A stretch of DNA of 64,000 nt. It comes from an uncultured Verrucomicrobiae bacterium (GTDB taxonomy: Bacteria; Verrucomicrobiota; Verrucomicrobiia; Chthoniobacterales; Chthoniobacteraceae). Of this stretch, positions 1,265 to 41,580 are shown in pieces. Every line of letters starts with the position of its first letter. Position 1 is the stretch's first letter. The stretch is taken from positions 896,001-960,000 of the forward strand of contig CAVYKI010000003.1 in assembly GCA_963769025.1 (NCBI GenBank). Direction: 5' to 3'. A model generated the notes under the pieces. The model saw only the letters and a program-made list of their open reading frames with translations, did not search any database and was not told the DNA's origin. Made by a program: the position numbers and the translations under genes.

Positions 1265-2118
1265 AAATCATACCCTCCTTCATCACGCGACGGCGTTTCA
1301 TTTACGGCTGCCTCGCGCTCGGTGCGGGTGCGGCCTCATGGACGCGGTTCATCGAGCCATGGTGGTTCAAGATCGCGAACCATACGGTGCCGCTCGGCCT
1401 CGGCGGGGAGCCCCTGCGAGTTTTGCAGCTCTCCGACATGCACGCGGACCCGATGCCTTTGTCCTATCTGGCGAAGACATTTCGTGCCGGCCTCGCGCTG
1501 AAGCCCGATCTGATCTGCGTGACGGGCGATTTCATCACCGAGAAATTCGACCTGTGGAACGAATACGCCGCGCTCCTTGCCGAGCTTTCCGCCGCCGCGC
1601 CGACATTCGCCGTTCTCGGAAATCACGACGGCGGCAAATGGGCTTACCGCCCCGGCTGGCACCATGGCTACCCAGACACGAAGCCCATCCGCGCGATGCT
1701 CGACACCGCACGGATCTCGCTGCTGCACAACCGCCGTGAGCGCCTCGCAATCCGCGGCCACGCGCTCGACCTCGTGGGCCTTGGCGACTGGTGGGCGGAT
1801 GAAATGAATCCCGGCGCCGCATTCTCCGGCTGGAAGCGCGAGCCGGGCGTGCCGGTGATTCTCCTTTCGCACAATCCCGACACGAAGGAGCGCCTGCTGC
1901 CATTCGGGTGGGAAGTGATGCTCAGCGGTCACACGCATGGCGGGCAGCTCTCGCTCCCATTCGTCGGCGAACCGTTCGCGCCGATCCGCGACAAGCGTTT
2001 CGTGCGCGGCCTGTATCGCTGGGAAGATCGCTGGCTCCACGTCACCGCCGGAGTCGGCGCACTGCACACGGCGCGCTTCAACTGCCGCCCCGAGGTGAGC
2101 CTGCTCACGCTCACTTAA
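1261..2118 (+). CDS. Calcineurin-like metallophosphoesterase (YkuE/YaeI family)
   Basis: SDMH, TGD, GNHD, SHNPD, SGHTHGGQ motifs; N-terminal TRRRF plus hydrophobic segment. Confidence 0.9.
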   Translation: MKIIPSFITRRRFIYGCLALGAGAASWTRFIEPWWFKIANHTVPLGLGGEPLRVLQLSDMHADPMPLSYLAKTFRAGLALKPDLICVTGDFITEKFDLWNEYAALLAELSAAAPTFAVLGNHDGGKWAYRPGWHHGYPDTKPIRAMLDTARISLLHNRRERLAIRGHALDLVGLGDWWADEMNPGAAFSGWKREPGVPVILLSHNPDTKERLLPFGWEVMLSGHTHGGQLSLPFVGEPFAPIRDKRFVRGLYRWEDRWLHVTAGVGALHTARFNCRPEVSLLTLT

Positions 2119-3485
2119 CCGTAGCGCAGCGCCTGGATGGGATTGAGTTTCGCCGCCTTCACCGCGGGAAAAAGGCCGGCGACGATGCCGACCACGACGC
2201 TGAAGGCGAAGGCGAGGAGCATGCTCTCCGCGACGATCACGGGTGCATTTTCACTTGGGGAAACGCTGACGATGATTTTGATCAGCAGGGCCGAGGTGAG
2301 CAGTCCCATGAGCCCGCCGATGATGGCGATGACCGTGCTCTCGACGAGGATCTGCGTGAACACATTGAAAAAGGTCGCGCCGATCGCCTTGCGGATTCCG
2401 ATCTCGCGCACGCGCTCGGTGATGCTCGCGAGCATGATGTTCATGATACCTATCCCGCCCGCGATGAGACTGATCGCGGCGATGATTCCGCCGCTCATGC
2501 GCGCGTTGCGGATCGCCTGGTTGATGCTCTCCAGGTTGTTCTCCTGCGTGGCGAACATGAAATCCTCGATGCCGTTGTGCGTGGCGAGAAGGACGTTCCT
2601 CGCCTGGCCGAGCGCGGCATCCATTTCGGCGAGATCGGTCACCTTCAGGTCGATGTCACTGAGCGTGGCATCGGGAACGTTGTTTGTGCCGCTGGCGGCA
2701 CGGAAGCGGAGCCACATCGTGTTCATGGGGATGTAGGCGGTCAGGTTCTTGCGCTCGAAGGCCCACGTGCTCCCGCTGCTTCCTCCGCGGTAGCCCGGGC
2801 GGCCGCGTTCGACGAGATGCTTCTTCGCCTCCTCTGGATGCGCTCGGGCCAGCTCGCGTTTCCGGCGATCCTGCTCGCTCTCGTAGTGCTGGAACATCCC
2901 GACGATGGTAAAGACCTGATGGTTGATCTGGATGTGTTCGCCCAACGGCACGACCTCGCGCCCGAGCTGTTCCGGCGAGCCGAAGAGCGCGTCGCGGATG
3001 CCGGTGCCGATGACGCAGACGGCGCTGGCGTTCTCCTCGTCGATCTCGTTGAAAAAGCGGCCGTGCTCGAGGACGTGGAGATTCATGTCGAGCACGACGG
3101 GCCACACACCGACCAGTTCGGCCGGCTTCATCCGAACTTCACCGCGGGAGAGGATTGCCTTTTCCAGCGCCATCTCCGGCGACACCATGCGGATGAGCGG
3201 TGCGCTCCGCTTCAGCGCCTCCACGTCGCGCAGCGTGCGGCCCGGCGCCTGGTCGGCGAGATGGCTCTGCCAAACGGGGACCGGCGCCTCGCGGGTGAGC
3301 GCCTTGTCGAGTCCGCCGAGCGCGATCATCGCCTCCTTCATCCCGTTCTCCATGCCCTTCACGATCGCCGCCATCGCCACGAGGCTCGAGACGCCGAGCA
3401 CGATGCCCAGCATCGTGAGGAGCGATCGGAACTTGTGCGCGAAAATCTCGCGCAGGCCGACGATGATGGCATTCAGGAAGGACAC
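2115..3485 (-). CDS. MacB/FtsX-family ABC transporter permease
   Basis: RSLLTMLGIVLGV, GGIGIMNIMLASITERVREIGIRKAIGA, PAVKAAKLNPIQALRY; probable GTG start at 3485. Confidence 0.92.
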   Translation of the reverse strand: MSFLNAIIVGLREIFAHKFRSLLTMLGIVLGVSSLVAMAAIVKGMENGMKEAMIALGGLDKALTREAPVPVWQSHLADQAPGRTLRDVEALKRSAPLIRMVSPEMALEKAILSRGEVRMKPAELVGVWPVVLDMNLHVLEHGRFFNEIDEENASAVCVIGTGIRDALFGSPEQLGREVVPLGEHIQINHQVFTIVGMFQHYESEQDRRKRELARAHPEEAKKHLVERGRPGYRGGSSGSTWAFERKNLTAYIPMNTMWLRFRAASGTNNVPDATLSDIDLKVTDLAEMDAALGQARNVLLATHNGIEDFMFATQENNLESINQAIRNARMSGGIIAAISLIAGGIGIMNIMLASITERVREIGIRKAIGATFFNVFTQILVESTVIAIIGGLMGLLTSALLIKIIVSVSPSENAPVIVAESMLLAFAFSVVVGIVAGLFPAVKAAKLNPIQALRYG

Positions 3486-3533
3486 GGTTTTCTTTTTCTG
3501 AAAAAGCCGCCCGTCGCGCAACGGCGCGCCTAG

Positions 3534-5009
3534 CTAGCCGTAGCGCAGCGCCTGGATGGGATTGAGCCTGGCCGCCTTGATGGAAGGGAAGAGCCCCGCG
3601 AGGACGCCCACGCCCACGCTGAACGCGAATGCCAGCGCCATGCTCTCGACGGTGATCACCGGCGTGTTCTCCGTAGGCGACATCGCCACGAGGATCTTCA
3701 CGAGCATGCTCGACGCGAACAGTCCCGCCAGCCCGCCGATGATGGCGATGACCACACTCTCCACGAGAATCTGCGTGAACACATCAAAGAACGTCGCGCC
3801 GATCGCCTTGCGGATTCCGATCTCCCGCACGCGCTCCGTGATGCTCGCCAGCATGATGTTCATGATTCCGATGCCGCCGACGAGCAGGCTGATCGCGGCG
3901 ATGATGCCGCCACTCATTCGCGCATTGCTGATAGCCTGCGTGATGCCCTCCGACCAGTTCTCCTGCGTGCGGAATGAAAAATCCTCGATGCCCTTGTGCG
4001 AGTGCATCAGGACGTTCTTCGCCTGCTGCAGCGCCTCGTCCATTTTGTCGATGTCCGCGATTTTGATGGAGAGCGTGGAAAGGCGCGGATCGGGAACGAA
4101 CTCGGCGGTGGCCGAACTGCCGCTCTGGCTGCTGCTGGAACTCGAGCTGCCGCCGCCGCCGCGACTCCCGCCGGATGAGGAACCGCTGCCGGACGAGCCG
4201 GTGGCCGCGCGGAACCTCAGCCACATCGTGTTCAGCGGGATGTAAACCGTGTTGTTCTTCAGATCGAAGACGAAGCCGCCCGGCGATCGGCTGCCGCTCT
4301 TGCTCCCGCTCATGCTTCCGAAGCCGCGGCTGCGCTCGGGGCCACCCTTTGTCTCGGCGGGCTTGTCCGTCTCCATCGAGCGCATTTTTTTGTCCTGCTC
4401 GCTCTCGTAGTGCTCGAACATGCCGATGATTTTGAACCGCTGGCTGTTGATGTTCAGAAACTCGCCGACGGGATTGATCACGCGCCCGATCTGTTCCGGC
4501 GAACCAAAGAGCGCGTCGCGGACCGCGGTGCCGATTACGCAGACGTTGCGCGCGTGCTCGTCGTCGAGGTCGTTGAACATGCGGCCGTGTTCGATGACGT
4601 GCTGGTTGAGTTCGAGTGCATTGGGCCAGGTGCCGAGAAAATACCATGGATTGTAGCTCTTCACGCCGCGCGAGAGGGTGATGCTGCGGACGCGCATCTC
4701 CGGGACGACCATCGTCACCAGCGGCGCGCTGCGGATGAGCGCATGGACGTCGTCCATCGTCGTGCCCACCGCCTGGTCGGCGAGGTGCTGCTGCCACACG
4801 GGGATGTCCTGTTCCTCGACGCGCACTTTTTCCAATCCTCCAATGGCGATGAGCGCCTCCTTCATCCCGTTTTCCATGCCCTTCGTCAGCGCCGACATGG
4901 CCACGAGGCTCGAAACGCCGAGAATGATGCCGAGCATCGTGAGGAGTGAACGGAATTTGTTCGCCCAGATTTCCTTGAAGCCGACGGCGATGGCGTTGAA
5001 CCAATTCAT
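3534..5009 (-). CDS. MacB/FtsX-family ABC transporter permease (paralog of neighbour, with Ser/Gly-rich insert)
   Basis: Same motifs; start MNWFNAIAVG at 5009. Confidence 0.92.
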   Translation of the reverse strand: MNWFNAIAVGFKEIWANKFRSLLTMLGIILGVSSLVAMSALTKGMENGMKEALIAIGGLEKVRVEEQDIPVWQQHLADQAVGTTMDDVHALIRSAPLVTMVVPEMRVRSITLSRGVKSYNPWYFLGTWPNALELNQHVIEHGRMFNDLDDEHARNVCVIGTAVRDALFGSPEQIGRVINPVGEFLNINSQRFKIIGMFEHYESEQDKKMRSMETDKPAETKGGPERSRGFGSMSGSKSGSRSPGGFVFDLKNNTVYIPLNTMWLRFRAATGSSGSGSSSGGSRGGGGSSSSSSSQSGSSATAEFVPDPRLSTLSIKIADIDKMDEALQQAKNVLMHSHKGIEDFSFRTQENWSEGITQAISNARMSGGIIAAISLLVGGIGIMNIMLASITERVREIGIRKAIGATFFDVFTQILVESVVIAIIGGLAGLFASSMLVKILVAMSPTENTPVITVESMALAFAFSVGVGVLAGLFPSIKAARLNPIQALRYG

Positions 5010-5010
5010 C

Positions 5011-5042
5011 GGAACGCGGAGCGCGGAACGGGGAACGCGGAA
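5011..5042 (+). repeat. 32-bp heptamer tandem element (GGAACGC-type x4.5), inverted copy C
   Basis: GGAACGC GGAGCGC GGAACGG GGAACGC GGAA; exact reverse complement of 5135-5166. Confidence 0.95.
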
Positions 5043-5113
5043 GGAAGACTCCGCGCAGAGCGCATGAGGTGATCTGAAAGGTGAAACAAAAGGCGCATTC
5101 GGTTCTGCGTTTG

Positions 5114-5518
5114 TCAGGCGTTCGGCTTCGGCTTTTCCGCGTTCCCCGTTCCGCGCTCCGCGTTCCTGGGGCCTTGTCGGGCTGTGTTGATCGAGGCGAC
5201 CGCGATGGCGACAAGTTCGTTGGATTCCCTGAGCAGGTTTGCGGACTTTGCTGCGGCTGTCTTTCCGCTCTCGGTCAGCAACTCGATCCAATAACCGGAT
5301 TCGTCGGCTTCCTCTTCGACGATTCCCATTTTCGAGATGAAGTCGGCATTGGACCTCGCACGTTTCGCAGTCCGGTAGTTCGCACCCGCAGATGTGCCGG
5401 ACCGCAACAATTGTCGCCCGAGAATCCGCGCGGTTTCATCCTTCGGAAGGCCTTCGACAAACGAGATGACTTCGAGCGCGAATTTCTTCGTTCGTTGCTT
5501 CAAATCTGTTGGCGGCAT
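5114..5518 (-). CDS. Four-helix-bundle protein (23S rRNA IVS protein / TIGR02436-like)
   Basis: DLKQRTKKFALEVI...LGRQLLRSGTSAGANYR...RSNADFISKMGIVEEEADESGYWIELL...ESNELVAI family signature. Confidence 0.92.
   Translation of the reverse strand: MPPTDLKQRTKKFALEVISFVEGLPKDETARILGRQLLRSGTSAGANYRTAKRARSNADFISKMGIVEEEADESGYWIELLTESGKTAAAKSANLLRESNELVAIAVASINTARQGPRNAERGTGNAEKPKPNA
5133..5166 (-). repeat. Heptamer tandem element, copy B (3' end of four-helix-bundle gene)
   Basis: ttttccgcgttccccgttccgcgctccgcgttcc; encodes NAERGTGNAE; 33-bp identity to 5545-5577. Confidence 0.95.
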
Positions 5519-5525
5519 GGCTGGA

Positions 5526-6293
5526 TCAGGTGCTCGGTTCCGAGTTTTCCGCGTTCCCCGTTCCGCGCTCCGCGTTCATCATAAATTTCGGCCCGGCGTT
5601 TTGGCCGGCGAGCCTGGCATCCACGCTGGCGGCGATCTTGCCGTCGCGGATTTCGATTTTTCGTGGGGTGACAGCCGCGATTTCCGGGTCGTGCGTGACC
5701 AGCGCGATCGTGCGGCCGCGGTGGCTCAGGTCGTGGAAGAGCCGCAGGATGGTCTCGCCGGTGTGCGAGTCGAGGTTGCCGGTCGGCTCGTCGGCAAAGA
5801 CGATTTTCGGATCGTTCACCAGCGCCCGTGCGATGGCGGCGCGCTGCTGCTGGCCGCCGGAAAGTTCCATGGGCCGGTGCTTCGCGCGGTTTTCCATTTC
5901 CACCAGCCGCAGCGCCTCCATCGCGCGGTCGTGGCGCTCGCGGGCGCTCGCGCCGGCGTAGATCATCGGGAGCTCTACGTTCTGGAGGACGCTCAGCTTC
6001 GGCAGCAGATTGAAGAACTGGAAAACGAATCCGATTTTCTGATTCCGGATGCGCGCGAGCTGGCGCGACGAGGCGGTGGAAATCTCCGTGCCGTCGAGCT
6101 TGAAGCTGCCTTTCGTCGGCGAGTCGAGACATCCGAGGACGTGCATGAGCGTGGACTTTCCGCTGCCCGAGGGACCGATGATGGAGATGAATTCGCCGCC
6201 CTCGATGTCGAGGTCCACATTGTCGAGGGCGCGGATTTCCTCGCCACCGAGGTGGTAGATCTTGCTGACGCCGCGAAGTTCGATGAGGGCCAT
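5526..6293 (-). CDS. ABC transporter ATP-binding protein (MacB/LolD-like)
   Basis: Walker A GPSGSGKST, LSGGQQQR, Walker B FADEPTGNLD, H-loop VTHD. Confidence 0.95.
   Translation of the reverse strand: MALIELRGVSKIYHLGGEEIRALDNVDLDIEGGEFISIIGPSGSGKSTLMHVLGCLDSPTKGSFKLDGTEISTASSRQLARIRNQKIGFVFQFFNLLPKLSVLQNVELPMIYAGASARERHDRAMEALRLVEMENRAKHRPMELSGGQQQRAAIARALVNDPKIVFADEPTGNLDSHTGETILRLFHDLSHRGRTIALVTHDPEIAAVTPRKIEIRDGKIAASVDARLAGQNAGPKFMMNAERGTGNAENSEPST
5545..5577 (-). repeat. Heptamer tandem element, copy A (3' end of ABC ATPase gene)
   Basis: Identical to 5133-5165; also encodes NAERGTGNAE. Confidence 0.95.
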
Positions 6294-6304: not shown

Positions 6305-7579
6305 CTAACCCGGAGCCCCTCCCTTTCCGGGTCCGGATCCCCCGGGCCGCGGCGCGCCCTTTTCTCCTCCACTCTTGTCGTCGCCCTTTTTGCCTCCCGG
6401 TTTCGCCGCGGCGCCGAATGCCTGCTGCACCTGGCCCGCGTCCTCCGACGGCGTGACGAGCGAGACGGTCTCGCCGCCCTCCAGTCCTTTCGTCACCTCC
6501 GCAAAGTCGTAGTCACTCACGCCAATCAAAATCGGAACACGCACAAATTTGTCGTCCTGCTTCACGTAGGCGAACCGGTCGCCCTTGTCGGTGAACACCG
6601 CGGCGAGCGGGATCGCGACAACGTCGTTGGCAGACTGGAGAGGAATGTTGAGGTTCGCCGTCATGCCCGGGCGCAGGCCGGACTTCTCGTCGTTCTTCAC
6701 GATGATGCGCGTGGAAAATCCCTTGATGCCGTTCTTGATCGTCGCCTGCGGCGCGATGCGATCGAGGCGGCCCTGGAGCTTGAGCCCCGCCACGGCTTCG
6801 ACTTCGATCTCGACCTTCTGGTTCACCGTCATGCGCGTCACGTCGGCCTGGTTGATGTGCGCGTTGATGATGAGTTCGCTAAGGTCGGCGATGGTGAGCA
6901 CCTCGGTGCCGCTGTTCACGCCGCTCGCGCCGGACACGGCCTGGCCGACGGACACGGGGCGCGTGAGGATGGTGCAGTCAAAGGGCGCGACGATCTGCGT
7001 CTTCACGAGCTTGTCCTCGACGAGCTGCAGCGCCTTCTCGGACCGCGCGAGGTTGTTCTTGGAAATCTCATAGGCGTTCTTCGCCACCTCCAGTTCGTTC
7101 GCGGTGTTGTCGAAGACCTCCTTGGAAACCAGCTTGCTGTCGAAGAGGTCCTTGTTGCGGTTGAAGCTCAGCTCGACTTTTTCCATCGCGAGCCGCGCTC
7201 CGGTGACCTGCAACCTTGCCCCTTCGATCTCGATCATCCGCTGCGCCTTTTCGGTCTGGAGATCCGTGTCATCGAGCGCGAAGAGCAGTTCGCCCCTCTT
7301 GAGCTTGTCACCGATGTCCACCGTCAGCGTCTCGATGCGCCCGCTGACCTCCGGCCGCACGGAGACCTGCTCCGCCGGGGTGATTTCGCCTGCGGCGCTG
7401 ATCGCAAAGTTGATGTTGCGCGTGCCGGCGACCGCCGTGGTTGCGCGCGAGGGTTTCTTTCCGTGCTCAGCGGCGGCCGATTTCTTCCAGAACATCACCG
7501 TCTCCGGCCATTGCCGCGCGGCGAAATACGTCCCCGCGAGAATCACTGCCACAACAAGCCATAAAATCGGGCGCTTCAT
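6305..7579 (-). CDS. Periplasmic adaptor / membrane fusion protein (MacA-like)
   Basis: N-terminal anchor MKRPILWLVVAV, EVSGRI...VDIGD, coiled coil, IVAPFDCTI, LRPGMTA. Confidence 0.9.
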   Translation of the reverse strand: MKRPILWLVVAVILAGTYFAARQWPETVMFWKKSAAAEHGKKPSRATTAVAGTRNINFAISAAGEITPAEQVSVRPEVSGRIETLTVDIGDKLKRGELLFALDDTDLQTEKAQRMIEIEGARLQVTGARLAMEKVELSFNRNKDLFDSKLVSKEVFDNTANELEVAKNAYEISKNNLARSEKALQLVEDKLVKTQIVAPFDCTILTRPVSVGQAVSGASGVNSGTEVLTIADLSELIINAHINQADVTRMTVNQKVEIEVEAVAGLKLQGRLDRIAPQATIKNGIKGFSTRIIVKNDEKSGLRPGMTANLNIPLQSANDVVAIPLAAVFTDKGDRFAYVKQDDKFVRVPILIGVSDYDFAEVTKGLEGGETVSLVTPSEDAGQVQQAFGAAAKPGGKKGDDKSGGEKGAPRPGGSGPGKGGAPG

Positions 7580-7832
7580 CGTTGGTTCGGAGTGCGGATG
7601 GGGTGAGTGATTCTTGGGTGGCTGCGCGCGGAGCGGAAAGAAACAGCATTCCCGCCGGGAGACAAGCCCGACAGGGTAAACCCGGCCCCCTGCCGGATGT
7701 TGCGCGGCACAGGAAAGCCTCAAAGAAAAGTCGGGATGAAAACCTCGGGAGTGTTCACGCTTTCCCACGTGCGCAAACTCGCGCTTCCGCCGAGGCCTGC
7801 GTGCCGGTGCCACAAAAAATCAGAACCTTCCC

Positions 7833-41488: not shown

Positions 41489-41580
41489 TCCTCAATCTTA
41501 CTCTTAATCCTAATCTTAATCCCCTCGCACCCGAATGGCCGGGAAGGGATTAAGATTAAGAATAAGATTAGGATTAAGAC
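41489..41580 (-). repeat. Hexamer-tandem inverted repeat (TAATCT/AGATTA) in pnp leader
   Basis: AT-rich arms 41489-41523 and 41546-41580 pair as an about 33-bp stem with 3 mismatches. Confidence 0.88.

Follow-up and report, generated by a model that had tools for sequence, protein, structure and literature searches.

Why does a gene for a small four-helix-bundle protein interrupt a transporter operon, enclosed by three copies of one heptamer array, and does the operon or the inserted gene profit from this arrangement? In the present study, this question was addressed in a window of 64,000 nucleotides, the whole stretch of DNA analysed, from an uncultured Verrucomicrobiae bacterium (contig CAVYKI010000003.1, positions 896,001 to 960,000), and all coordinates given below refer to this window. 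The operon is MacAB-like and is read on the minus strand. The first of its genes visible here encodes a membrane-fusion adaptor of the MacA/HlyD type (6305..7813; HlyD_D23, E 1.5e-18, and HlyD_3; TIGR01730, E 4e-50), followed by an ABC ATPase of the MacB/LolD type (5526..6293; ABC_tran, E 6.7e-35), a first permease of 491 aa (3534..5009; MacB_PCD, E 8.9e-27, and FtsX, E 1.3e-18; also tblastn), and a second permease (2115..3521; MacB_PCD and FtsX). The cassette gene (5114..5518, minus strand, 134 aa) is located between the ATPase and the first permease. Taken together, the results presented below indicate that the locus is probably a selfish gene cassette of the intervening-sequence (IVS) type lodged in the operon, and not a device of the operon itself.

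The gene is bracketed by three arms composed of a GGAACGC-type array, with the units GGAACGC GGAGCGC GGAACGG GGAACGC GGAA, as a repeat search confirmed for the description in the initial annotation. Arm A (5547..5577, minus strand, 31 nt) is a direct copy of arm B and complementary to arm C; arm B (5135..5166, minus strand, 32 nt) lies within the four-helix-bundle ORF, at its 3' end, and arm C (5011..5042, plus strand) is the inverted copy. The coordinates first proposed were exact for C, but the starts given for A (5545) and B (5133) were each 2 nt too low. C 5011-5042 is 100% complementary to B 5135-5166 over 32 nt, at a distance of 92 nt, and C 5012-5042 is 100% complementary to A 5547-5577 over 31 nt, at a distance of 504 nt. 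The direct repeat of A and B is also present, but it is longer than previously described, extending over 52 nt at 88% identity (5114-5165 versus 5526-5577) and spanning both stop codons; the copy comprising A and its tail (5526..5577, minus strand) holds the stop codon of the ATPase. The C-terminal ~18 codons of the ATPase pass through array A up to a TGA stop 20 nt beyond the array (the translated tail reads NAERGTGNAENSEPST up to the stop), and NCBIfam models cover this protein of 255 residues no further than about residue 229. The ATG of the cassette gene is located 7 nt past the ATPase stop, and its final ~20 codons consist of array B plus a tail; the peptide NAERGTGNAE, previously ascribed to the array, was read in both ORFs. 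The spacer between B and C (5043..5134, minus strand, 92 nt) contains the last codons of the gene, its stop at 5114-5116, and 71 untranslated nt. C is then followed by G ATG AAT, the start of the permease (ATG at 5009-5007), confirming that C ends 1 nt before this ATG. On the coding strand, no intrinsic terminator (a short GC stem plus a T run) was observed at B-C, no sigma-70-like promoter was found at the hairpin, and an Rfam scan of the cassette site revealed no rRNA or other family, with only sub-threshold matches to miRNA-precursor-like hairpins. The best inverted match at the cassette scores 31, compared with a maximum of 17 among 200 random positions of equal span in the same genome. 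An assembly artefact, which had been raised as a possible source of the repeats, is unlikely because the independently assembled genome G010 shows the same order of A, gene, B, loop, and C at the same site.

The cassette protein belongs to PF05635 (residues 7-105, E 4.7e-15, 56.2 bits against a cut-off of 33.8) and TIGR02436 (E 2e-22, 79.5 bits against a cut-off of 24), and has a relative of solved structure, 2rld_A (residues 6-114, E 1.8e-17), whose PDB entry contains five chains. No other Pfam or NCBIfam family was detected in the protein, including any Y1/HUH transposase, and none of the PADLOC anti-phage models matched the cassette at E <= 0.01. To our knowledge, PF05635 carries no nuclease, recombinase, or catalytic motif. 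The gene is under purifying selection, with a dN/dS of 0.07-0.11 relative to the G010 ortholog (0.106 for the whole gene and 0.07 for the domain). The dS of the gene is 1.7-2.0, about threefold the permease dS of 0.55, and the silent sites of the gene are 67-70% different between G000 and G010.

The same junction was compared across the genus, in which 9 of the 30 genomes have the operon, the same 9 being obtained when the permease (3534-5009) was used for the search. A pristine ATGA overlap of the ATPase stop and the permease start is retained in three of these nine (G003, G015, and G042), in support of the suggestion that the gene is an insert interrupting the operon. Two others (G000 and G010) carry the cassette, two have a gene-less remnant, and two contain other inserts, namely a different hairpin with 31-nt arms in G024 and a DUF433/DUF5615 pair in G005, after which a C-like array follows. 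The remnants in G004 and G014 are gene-less spacers homologous to the loop plus C (G004: local score 40, z 4.7, 0/300 shuffles; G014: local score 33, z 2.8, 4/300 shuffles), as expected if recombination between A and B could delete the gene, a possibility pointed out in the initial annotation. G000 and G010 are collinear across A, the gene, B, the loop, and C, with 30 of the 32 positions of C identical in G010, and a Verrucomicrobiota MAG (L085) has the locus in common. In the permease tree, G000 groups with G004 and G014, and G010 groups with the pristine genomes (99/97 support). No clear target-site duplication was seen at the ATPase/permease junction, and no transposase was found there. Logan contigs from four DNA runs are short and derive from relatives (shares <=0.11); where C is joined to B or A in them, 21-37 other nucleotides intervene, and these joints resemble other hairpins of the same family.

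The presence of a third arm is illuminated by a sister cassette. Loci L010 and L012 are one locus, at which L012 has the layout A-gene-C, and L010 contains in addition an arm B whose sequence, together with its leader, duplicates A and its leader. Moreover, 39 nt of the gene are preserved in the loop of L010 (score 38 versus 16.8+-2.3, 0/500 shuffles), demonstrating that the third arm of L010 is the start of a decayed second copy of the cassette. In the 71-nt loop of the window, no remnant of a second gene was detected (score 17 versus 15+-2, with 104/500 shuffles as good). The 52-nt A/B repeat and the analogy with L010 make it most plausible that arm B of the window once formed the left arm of a second tandem unit, which would likewise have decayed.

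Arms of this kind are a regular companion of the gene. Inverted arms with a score of at least 14 were observed at 25 of 30 loci of relatives from the same order (32 listed loci minus L029, which has stops in the match, and L030, which has a 25-nt flank) versus 6 of 200 controls, and arms with a score of at least 18 at 22 of 30 versus 0 of 200. Across phyla, 57 of 78 loci were armed compared with 1 of 78 controls, leaving out L159 and L162 for their short flanks, and the period was 7 in 55 of the 57. These results support the earlier proposal of a repeat-armed cassette class that lacks a transposase. A direct copy of the B type was found in only 6 of 30 cassettes versus 11 of 200 controls. In addition, the heptamer unit co-varies with the relatedness of the proteins, and does so even between unrelated loci. 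When pairs from different loci were compared, the units were within 2 mismatches of each other in 26 of 33 pairs with at least 65% protein identity, 154 of 422 pairs with 50-65%, and 328 of 1406 pairs below 50%, compared with 23% of random pairs, although these pair counts are not independent of one another because related sequences share units.

The arms also belong to a genus-wide family of hairpins built from heptamer arrays, the majority of which are gene-less. In the genome of the window, 39 array hairpins were detected versus 3 in a reverse-only control; the GGAACGC hairpins have their arms in common and unrelated loops, and copies of the family also occur inside unrelated genes. The counts of (GGAACGC)x3 are highest in the cassette carriers (19 in G000 and 11 in G010) and are zero in 18 of 30 genomes; G015 has 8 matches, none beside its PF05635 genes. 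Similarly, (GGATACC)x3 occurs 28 times in G012, once in G003, and in none of the remaining genomes of the genus, and the PF05635 gene of G012 has GGATACC arms of 28 nt at 93%. Two radical-SAM sites show GGAACGC arms in G000 and G004 and GGATACC arms in G012, a difference that may reflect either rewriting to the genome-specific unit or independent colonisation. The pristine version of the cassette junction (GCGGAGAACGGAAAAC) and a pristine radical-SAM site (GCGAACGGCGAACGC) resemble the unit, and one further site does not. Construction of the arms from the target was considered as a general rule and rejected, given that the same arm sequences recur in other species and at loci that are not linked. 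At another ATGA junction, a gene-less hairpin is flanked by a 4-nt TCAT duplication. Arrays of the GTTGAGA type vary strongly in number from one genome to another, ranging from tens to about 100; for these counts, a reversed-pattern control is invalid, since the reversed pattern overlaps the very array that it is meant to control for. As a separate observation, a GxxExxY gene in the urease operon is accompanied by CGCCAAGA arms of its own and by gene-less hairpins that match.

Among the systems described to date, the ORF-bearing 23S rRNA IVS is the closest. The initial annotation had likened the gene to such sequences, and the cassette is indeed constructed in this manner, with terminal inverted repeats that would form a long stem around an S23p/PF05635 ORF and with tandem heptamers, as in Coxiella burnetii. 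According to excerpts of PMC4990558, the helix-45 IVS of Coxiella has a 28-bp terminal stem with the S23p ORF in its loop, tandem GACAGAT heptamers of variable number upstream of the ORF, and an RNase III cut at the first heptamer. The same excerpts call this IVS selfish and horizontally acquired without known means of movement, report that its S23p ORF is decaying, and present the origin and mobility of IVSs and the function of S23p as hypotheses only. Unlike the rRNA IVS, the cassette is located outside 23S helix 25/45, between two protein-coding genes, and has three arms, translated as tails of two ORFs. As far as the excerpts on Coxiella allow comparison, the cassette also differs in its dispersed gene-less arm copies, in a protein under purifying selection rather than a decaying ORF, and in that RNase III cutting was shown for Coxiella and would apply to the cassette by extension. 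In the literature covered, from which most subscription journals were absent, no report of such a layout beyond rRNA was found.

RAYT proteins are HUH/Y1 transposases. REPIN/RAYT systems (PMC3116915) share with the cassette a gene flanked by a hairpin repeat that is dispersed in gene-less form, and gene-specific repeat families, whereas the cassette arms are tandem 7-8-nt arrays with unrelated loops. The Ssn nucleases and their NTS/SRM repeats likewise tie a small gene to a short multicopy genomic sequence, but Ssn, as far as excerpts of PMC11893778 describe it, is a GIY-YIG ssDNA nuclease of demonstrated activity and represents another family and another repeat architecture. The homology of the four-helix-bundle fold with Avd of diversity-generating retroelements, mentioned in the initial annotation, is consistent with the resemblance of PF05635 to Avd (PDB 4DWL versus 2GSC) in an excerpt of PMC10053308, and pentameric assembly has been reported for a Xanthomonas homolog in the title of a cited paper. 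The other traits of these retroelements were not observed: a search of the genome (83% complete) for PF00078 gave 0 matches, and there was no adjacent reverse transcriptase and no pair of template and variable repeats. The STRR sequences of filamentous cyanobacteria are tandem heptamers dispersed in a genome, similar to the arrays described here. In the parts of the STRR literature covered, no tie to a PF05635 gene was found.

Herein, we propose that the gene and its arms would travel as one unit, which would be gained, lost, and exchanged by recombination and would settle at tolerated landing sites, e.g. gene junctions. In the window, the second tandem unit, with B as its left arm, would have lost its gene, so that B-loop-C would represent a nascent gene-less hairpin. 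The cassette would ride the operon transcript; the ATPase ORF would read into the left array and stop at the TGA supplied beyond that array, and the proximity of the cassette ATG to this TGA suggests that the gene is translationally coupled. In RNA, C may pair with A or with B in a perfect duplex of 31-32 bp, which host RNase III should cut as in the rRNA version, and a gene for RNase III was found in the genome. Unless it is opened by ribosomes translating A and B, the duplex would also mask the start of the permease. In addition, a pentameric Avd-like protein may recognise its own heptamer array. Since the protein has neither a known nor a predicted catalytic activity, the proposal does not account for any step of movement.

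Other explanations must be weighed against a selfish cassette. The initial annotation had raised a possible mRNA loop-out switch. In this reading, the arms are kept to the benefit of the cell, and the choice of C between A and B as pairing partner determines the translation of the permease or the processing of the operon mRNA. Folding confirmed that C can pair equally well with either arm (predicted duplex energies of -71.7 kcal/mol for A:C and -75.6 kcal/mol for B:C), and A is paired with C in the predicted minimum-free-energy fold of 631 nt. These pairings are perfect, strong, and mutually exclusive, C adjoins the permease ATG, A and B lie in translated sequence so that ribosomes could toggle both, and G010 keeps all three arms, of which B and C have changed in step (ACGGGG here and ACGCGG in G010). 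However, three of the nine operon congeners manage without arms, the arms copy a dispersed repeat family that also occurs inside unrelated genes, the third arm of the sister cassette originated by simple duplication, and the B-type copy is as infrequent as noted above. Moreover, mismatches in the arms show no excess of G:U over A:C (28 versus 36 and 94 versus 75; overall, 122 G:T versus 111 A:C), and selection for an RNA stem is therefore unsupported; the arms may be relevant solely at the DNA level. Despite the physically strong pairings, nothing supports an evolved switch, and we regard a purpose-built device as very improbable.

The absence of a G:U excess is in line with a DNA system resembling REPIN/RAYT, in which the arms act only as hairpins or cruciforms in DNA, RNA pairing is a by-product, and the protein, either by itself or together with a nuclease of the host or of the GxxExxY type, would act in trans on every hairpin in the genome that shares its unit. 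Units shared between the resident cassette and the gene-less hairpins (GGATACC only in G012, GGAACGC highest in G000 and G010), the conservation of the arm sequence itself compared with the divergent silent sites of the gene, the TCAT duplication, and the armed GxxExxY gene of the urease operon are all consistent with such a system. Nevertheless, we consider it unlikely, as PF05635 lacks a known nuclease or recombinase motif, hairpins are kept in genomes without the cognate gene (e.g. G015), hairpins with the same arms have unrelated loops, unlike copies of one MITE, and the sole experimental data on this layout, in the excerpts of PMC4990558 on Coxiella, concern RNA. A local accident, namely slippage in place plus inverted duplication unrelated to the gene, would account for the resemblance of the pristine junction and radical-SAM sites to the unit, but hardly any weight can be given to it in view of the excess of armed loci over controls, both within the order and across phyla, and of identical arms shared by unlinked loci and by different species. 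The selfish IVS-type cassette thus remains the preferred explanation.

The origin and mobility of rRNA IVSs and the function of the S23p/Avd-like protein are questions that have stood since the 1990s. As a more speculative idea, which we put forward only tentatively, the pentamer might serve as the factor acting in trans in a novel class of transposase-less mobile DNA, in which each lineage recognises its own 7-nt unit and propagates or maintains both the cassette and the hairpins. If this were true, there might be perhaps one unit per subunit, the arms having about 4-5 units, the hairpins would settle in rRNA helices, at the junctions between genes, or in frame within them, and ribosomal IVSs would be merely the rRNA-resident copies of the element. 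For the host, the 32-bp stem at the start codon likely affects expression of the pump. For annotation, the arms provide neighbouring proteins with spurious tails, and gene-less copies lie in frame inside genes. For the family, a unit of gene and heptamer arms lives in ordinary operons of many phyla; close relatives show sites that are filled, empty, or decayed, and populations of gene-less hairpins match the unit of the resident gene, which makes the IVS question testable.

In the present study, the four-helix-bundle gene of the window was found to be an insert in a MacAB-like operon, as pristine, filled and gene-less junctions in congeners demonstrate. The operon lies on the minus strand and consists of an adaptor gene (6305-7813), an ABC ATPase gene (5526-6293), the 134-aa cassette gene (5114-5518; PF05635, TIGR02436), permease 1 (3534-5009, ATG 5009-5007) and permease 2 (2115-3521). 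The cassette gene scored 56.2 bits against PF05635 in a Pfam scan (cut-off 33.8), with E 2e-22 against TIGR02436, and its product matched the solved four-helix-bundle protein 2rld_A with E 1.8e-17. The frame of permease 1 was fixed by tblastn with permease 2 and a Pfam scan, in which it matches MacB_PCD and FtsX; the frame 3784-5010 had no Pfam match and was rejected. A minus-strand alternative open frame, 3784-5214, overlaps permease 1 and is about 65% conserved in congeners purely through DNA conservation. The layout proposed in the initial annotation, three copies of one GGAACGC-type heptamer array around the gene (direct copies A and B, inverted copy C), was confirmed by repeat search and translation, with starts for A and B that had been off by 2 nt. 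C (5011-5042) is 100% complementary over 32 nt to B (5135-5166; separation 92 nt) and over 31 nt (5012-5042) to A (5547-5577; separation 504 nt). In addition, a 52-nt direct repeat (5114-5165 and 5526-5577; 88%) shows that the likeness of A and B extends beyond the array, over a further 20 nt and a TGA stop. In both units the upstream open reading frame, that of the ATPase or of the cassette gene, crosses the array, which is translated as NAERGTGNAE, and ends at the TGA 20 nt past it. The cassette gene begins 7 nt past the first TGA, the ATPase stop, and the permease 1 ATG begins 1 nt beyond the end of arm C.

The state of this junction differs among congeners. An ortholog of permease 1 is present in 9/30 genus genomes, which display five junction states, with 6/9 junctions occupied by something. 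The empty site sought by the operon comparison was found in G003, G015 and G042, where the stop codon of the ATPase gene and the start codon of the permease gene overlap in an ATGA and the ATPase ends in ..NAENGKP*, ..STEGGKP* and ..GTNAP*, respectively. The cassette is present in G000, the genome of the window, and in G010; the ATPase frame departs from the pristine one after ..NAE/..TAE and enters array A. These two cassettes are collinear (A, gene, B, B-tail, loop, C), with about 90 additional bases between A and the gene in G010. In G004 and G014, a gene-less spacer aligns with the window loop and a decayed C (G004: score 40, z 4.7, 0/300 shuffles equal; G014: score 33, z 2.8, 4/300 shuffles equal). 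Judged from these alignments, such a spacer would be the expected leftover of a deletion between A and B followed by decay; the same loop and C-like remnant may also represent a hairpin that predated the gene insertion. The G024 junction contains a different hairpin with 31-nt arms of 81% complementarity, and that of G005 (L046, G005:C118) contains a toxin-antitoxin-like DUF433 and DUF5615/PIN-like pair and then, immediately upstream of the permease ATG, a C-like array. The G005 ATPase tail is of the G004/G014 type and its permease groups with that of G003; these mismatched sequence affinities suggest a recombination breakpoint at the junction.

The cassette gene has a dN/dS of 0.106 between G000 and G010 (0.07 over the domain), indicating that it encodes a working protein. 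The dS between these genomes is 1.7-2.0 for the cassette gene versus 0.55 for the adjoining permease, and the permease tree places G000 in one group with G004/G014 and unites G010 with the pristine genomes G015, G042 and G003 (support 99/97; root arbitrary). Therefore, the cassette alleles are older than their flanks, which requires that either the cassette or the flanks were recombined or transferred between species. Arm C is identical at 30/32 positions between G000 and G010, while 67-70% of the silent sites of the gene differ, so the arm sequence is constrained or homogenised. A direct B-type copy was observed in 6/30 PF05635 loci of the order versus 11/200 controls, and the origin of such a third arm is revealed by one locus in two genomes, with the order A-gene-C in G014 (L012) and A-gene-B-loop-C in G017 (L010). 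In L010, B and about 35 nt duplicate A and the gene leader, and the loop retains a 39-nt piece of the 3' part of the gene (score 38 vs 16.8+-2.3, 0/500 shuffles); the third arm there thus opens a second tandem unit whose gene was lost. By analogy, the 52-nt A/B repeat of the window would fit such a tandem-unit history; no gene remnant was detected in the window's own loop by alignment against shuffles (104/500 equally good).

Related arrays are dispersed in this genome. All three PF05635 genes of G000 have inverted short-period arrays with a different unit at each: GGAACGC at the window gene, GGAAGAT around L002, where a single nucleotide likewise separates the right arm from the ATG of the next gene, and GGAGACGG/GGAGACTT around L001. 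Upstream of the L001 gene, an unusually long array (about 250 nt; L001:1207-1460) of GGAGACTT/GGAGAGGA 8-mers was observed, and downstream of its stop codon lie five GGAGACGG units plus an inverted copy. A TRF-based whole-genome scan (arrays paired at score >=16, loop <=1500) revealed 39 array hairpins, compared with 3 in the reverse-only and 5 in the complement-only control, the latter all from a single family that, when complemented, gives a shifted copy of itself. Gene-less GGAACGC hairpins, with common arms and unrelated loops, lie in frame within a DUF1549/DUF1553 ORF (G000:C2:21041-21196; L008:1501-1657), twice in frame within a B12-binding radical-SAM gene on contig C9 (L060:2238-2333 and 3162-3293), and at another ATGA-type junction (C12:382926-383019). 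The radical-SAM gene is split into two overlapping frames in G000, and these hairpins and that of the DUF1549/DUF1553 ORF are missing from some congeners. The C12 junction is empty in G010, G004, G014 and G003 (..TCAT/TCAC..), and TCAT flanks the hairpin on either side in G000. The C12 junction is filled in G000, G045 and G001 (L072-L074), with the differing right-arm units GCGTTCC, TTCAAAA-like and TCCGAAA; the arms of G045 and G001 are no longer complementary. A GxxExxY gene in the urease operon (TIGR04256, E 2.5e-43; C3:616036-616458, minus strand; region G000:C3:614649-616867, L084) has CGCCAAGA arms and an array-encoded N-terminus, and beside it lie several gene-less CGCCAAGA-array hairpins, one apparently in frame within ureC. 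The window also contains an array hairpin of TCCTAA/TCTTAA-like 6-mers (41494-41522 and 41547-41575; G000:C3:937494-937575; arms 24 nt apart, score 17).

The units are genome-specific. Among 30 genus genomes, (GGAACGC)x3 at <=2 mismatches was matched 19 times in G000 and 11 times in G010, the two cassette carriers, <=8 times in others and not at all in 18; (GGATACC)x3 was matched 28 times in G012, once in G003 and in none of the rest. The G012 PF05635 gene lies within 28-nt GGATACC arms (93% complementary) between PAPS_reduct and GTP_EFTU genes. At the two radical-SAM sites, G012 has GGATACC hairpins (L061, G012:C114) where G000 and G004 have GGAACGC, with matching outer boundaries; either the arms were rewritten or identical spots were colonised twice.

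Armed genes were also observed far beyond the genus. Each gene was scored by the best ungapped inverted match (+1/-2) between its 450-nt upstream and 450-nt downstream flanks. Of the 30 PF05635 loci taken from 41 genomes in the order, 25 scored >=14 and 22 scored >=18, compared with 6/200 and 0/200 random own-genome positions and 2/30 in the reverse-only control. Among relatives of the cassette protein from many phyla (36-76% identity), of which the closest are from Verrucomicrobiota/Limisphaerales MAGs, 57/78 scored >=14 and 40/78 >=18 (reverse-only 1/78). Period 7 was found in 55 of these 57 loci, and a purine-rich 5' arm (>0.6) occurs in 43, a pyrimidine-rich one in a single locus; since inverted repeats read alike on either strand, this polarity belongs to the palindrome and does not reflect gene orientation. 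GGAAYGC-like units are retained in close relatives from other phyla (e.g. L085, L093, L095, L096, L101, L104), and one unit is common to L133 and L134 (one MAG, 94% identity) and L128 (a Nitrospiraceae MAG) at different loci. Among non-independent pairs without flank homology, consensus units were within 2 mismatches in 26/33 at protein identity >=65%, 154/422 at 50-65% and 328/1406 below 50%, compared with 23% of random pairs.

The initial annotation had proposed a possible mRNA loop-out switch, C pairing with either A or B, or a mobile cassette. The cassette reading is supported by these results, and the switch reading is not. Strong duplexes are predicted (A:C -71.7, B:C -75.6 kcal/mol; local B-loop-C hairpin -90.9 kcal/mol), and no G:U excess was found among arm mismatches (G:U vs A:C, 28 vs 36 and 94 vs 75). 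In the 631-nt minimum-energy fold (z -3.4) C pairs with A (30.7 expected pairs vs 0.07 with B); under co-transcriptional folding, B would be the favoured partner. G000 encodes RNase III; in Coxiella, RNase III has been shown to cut the equivalent stem of the 23S rRNA intervening sequence (IVS) at the first heptamer (PMC4990558). The stems might be processed, the permease start sequestered and the pairing melted by ribosomes.

The closest known system is the S23p-bearing 23S rRNA IVS, which is alike in gene family, terminal stem and tandem heptamers (PMC4990558); however, the window cassette lies outside rRNA and thus lacks the defining feature of an IVS. The protein is also homologous to the Avd of diversity-generating retroelements, as another report indicates (PMC10053308); no reverse transcriptase was found near the cassette or in the 83%-complete G000 genome. 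The association of a resident gene with gene-less hairpins scattered through the genome works in the manner of REPIN/RAYT, but the window cassette has no recognisable transposase. The armed-cassette layout outside rRNA is undescribed in the literature searched, in which subscription journals were sparsely covered. The locus contributes a single junction in filled, empty, decayed and replaced states, a silent divergence that is higher in the cassette than in its flanks, a documented origin for a third arm and a genome-specific census of units.
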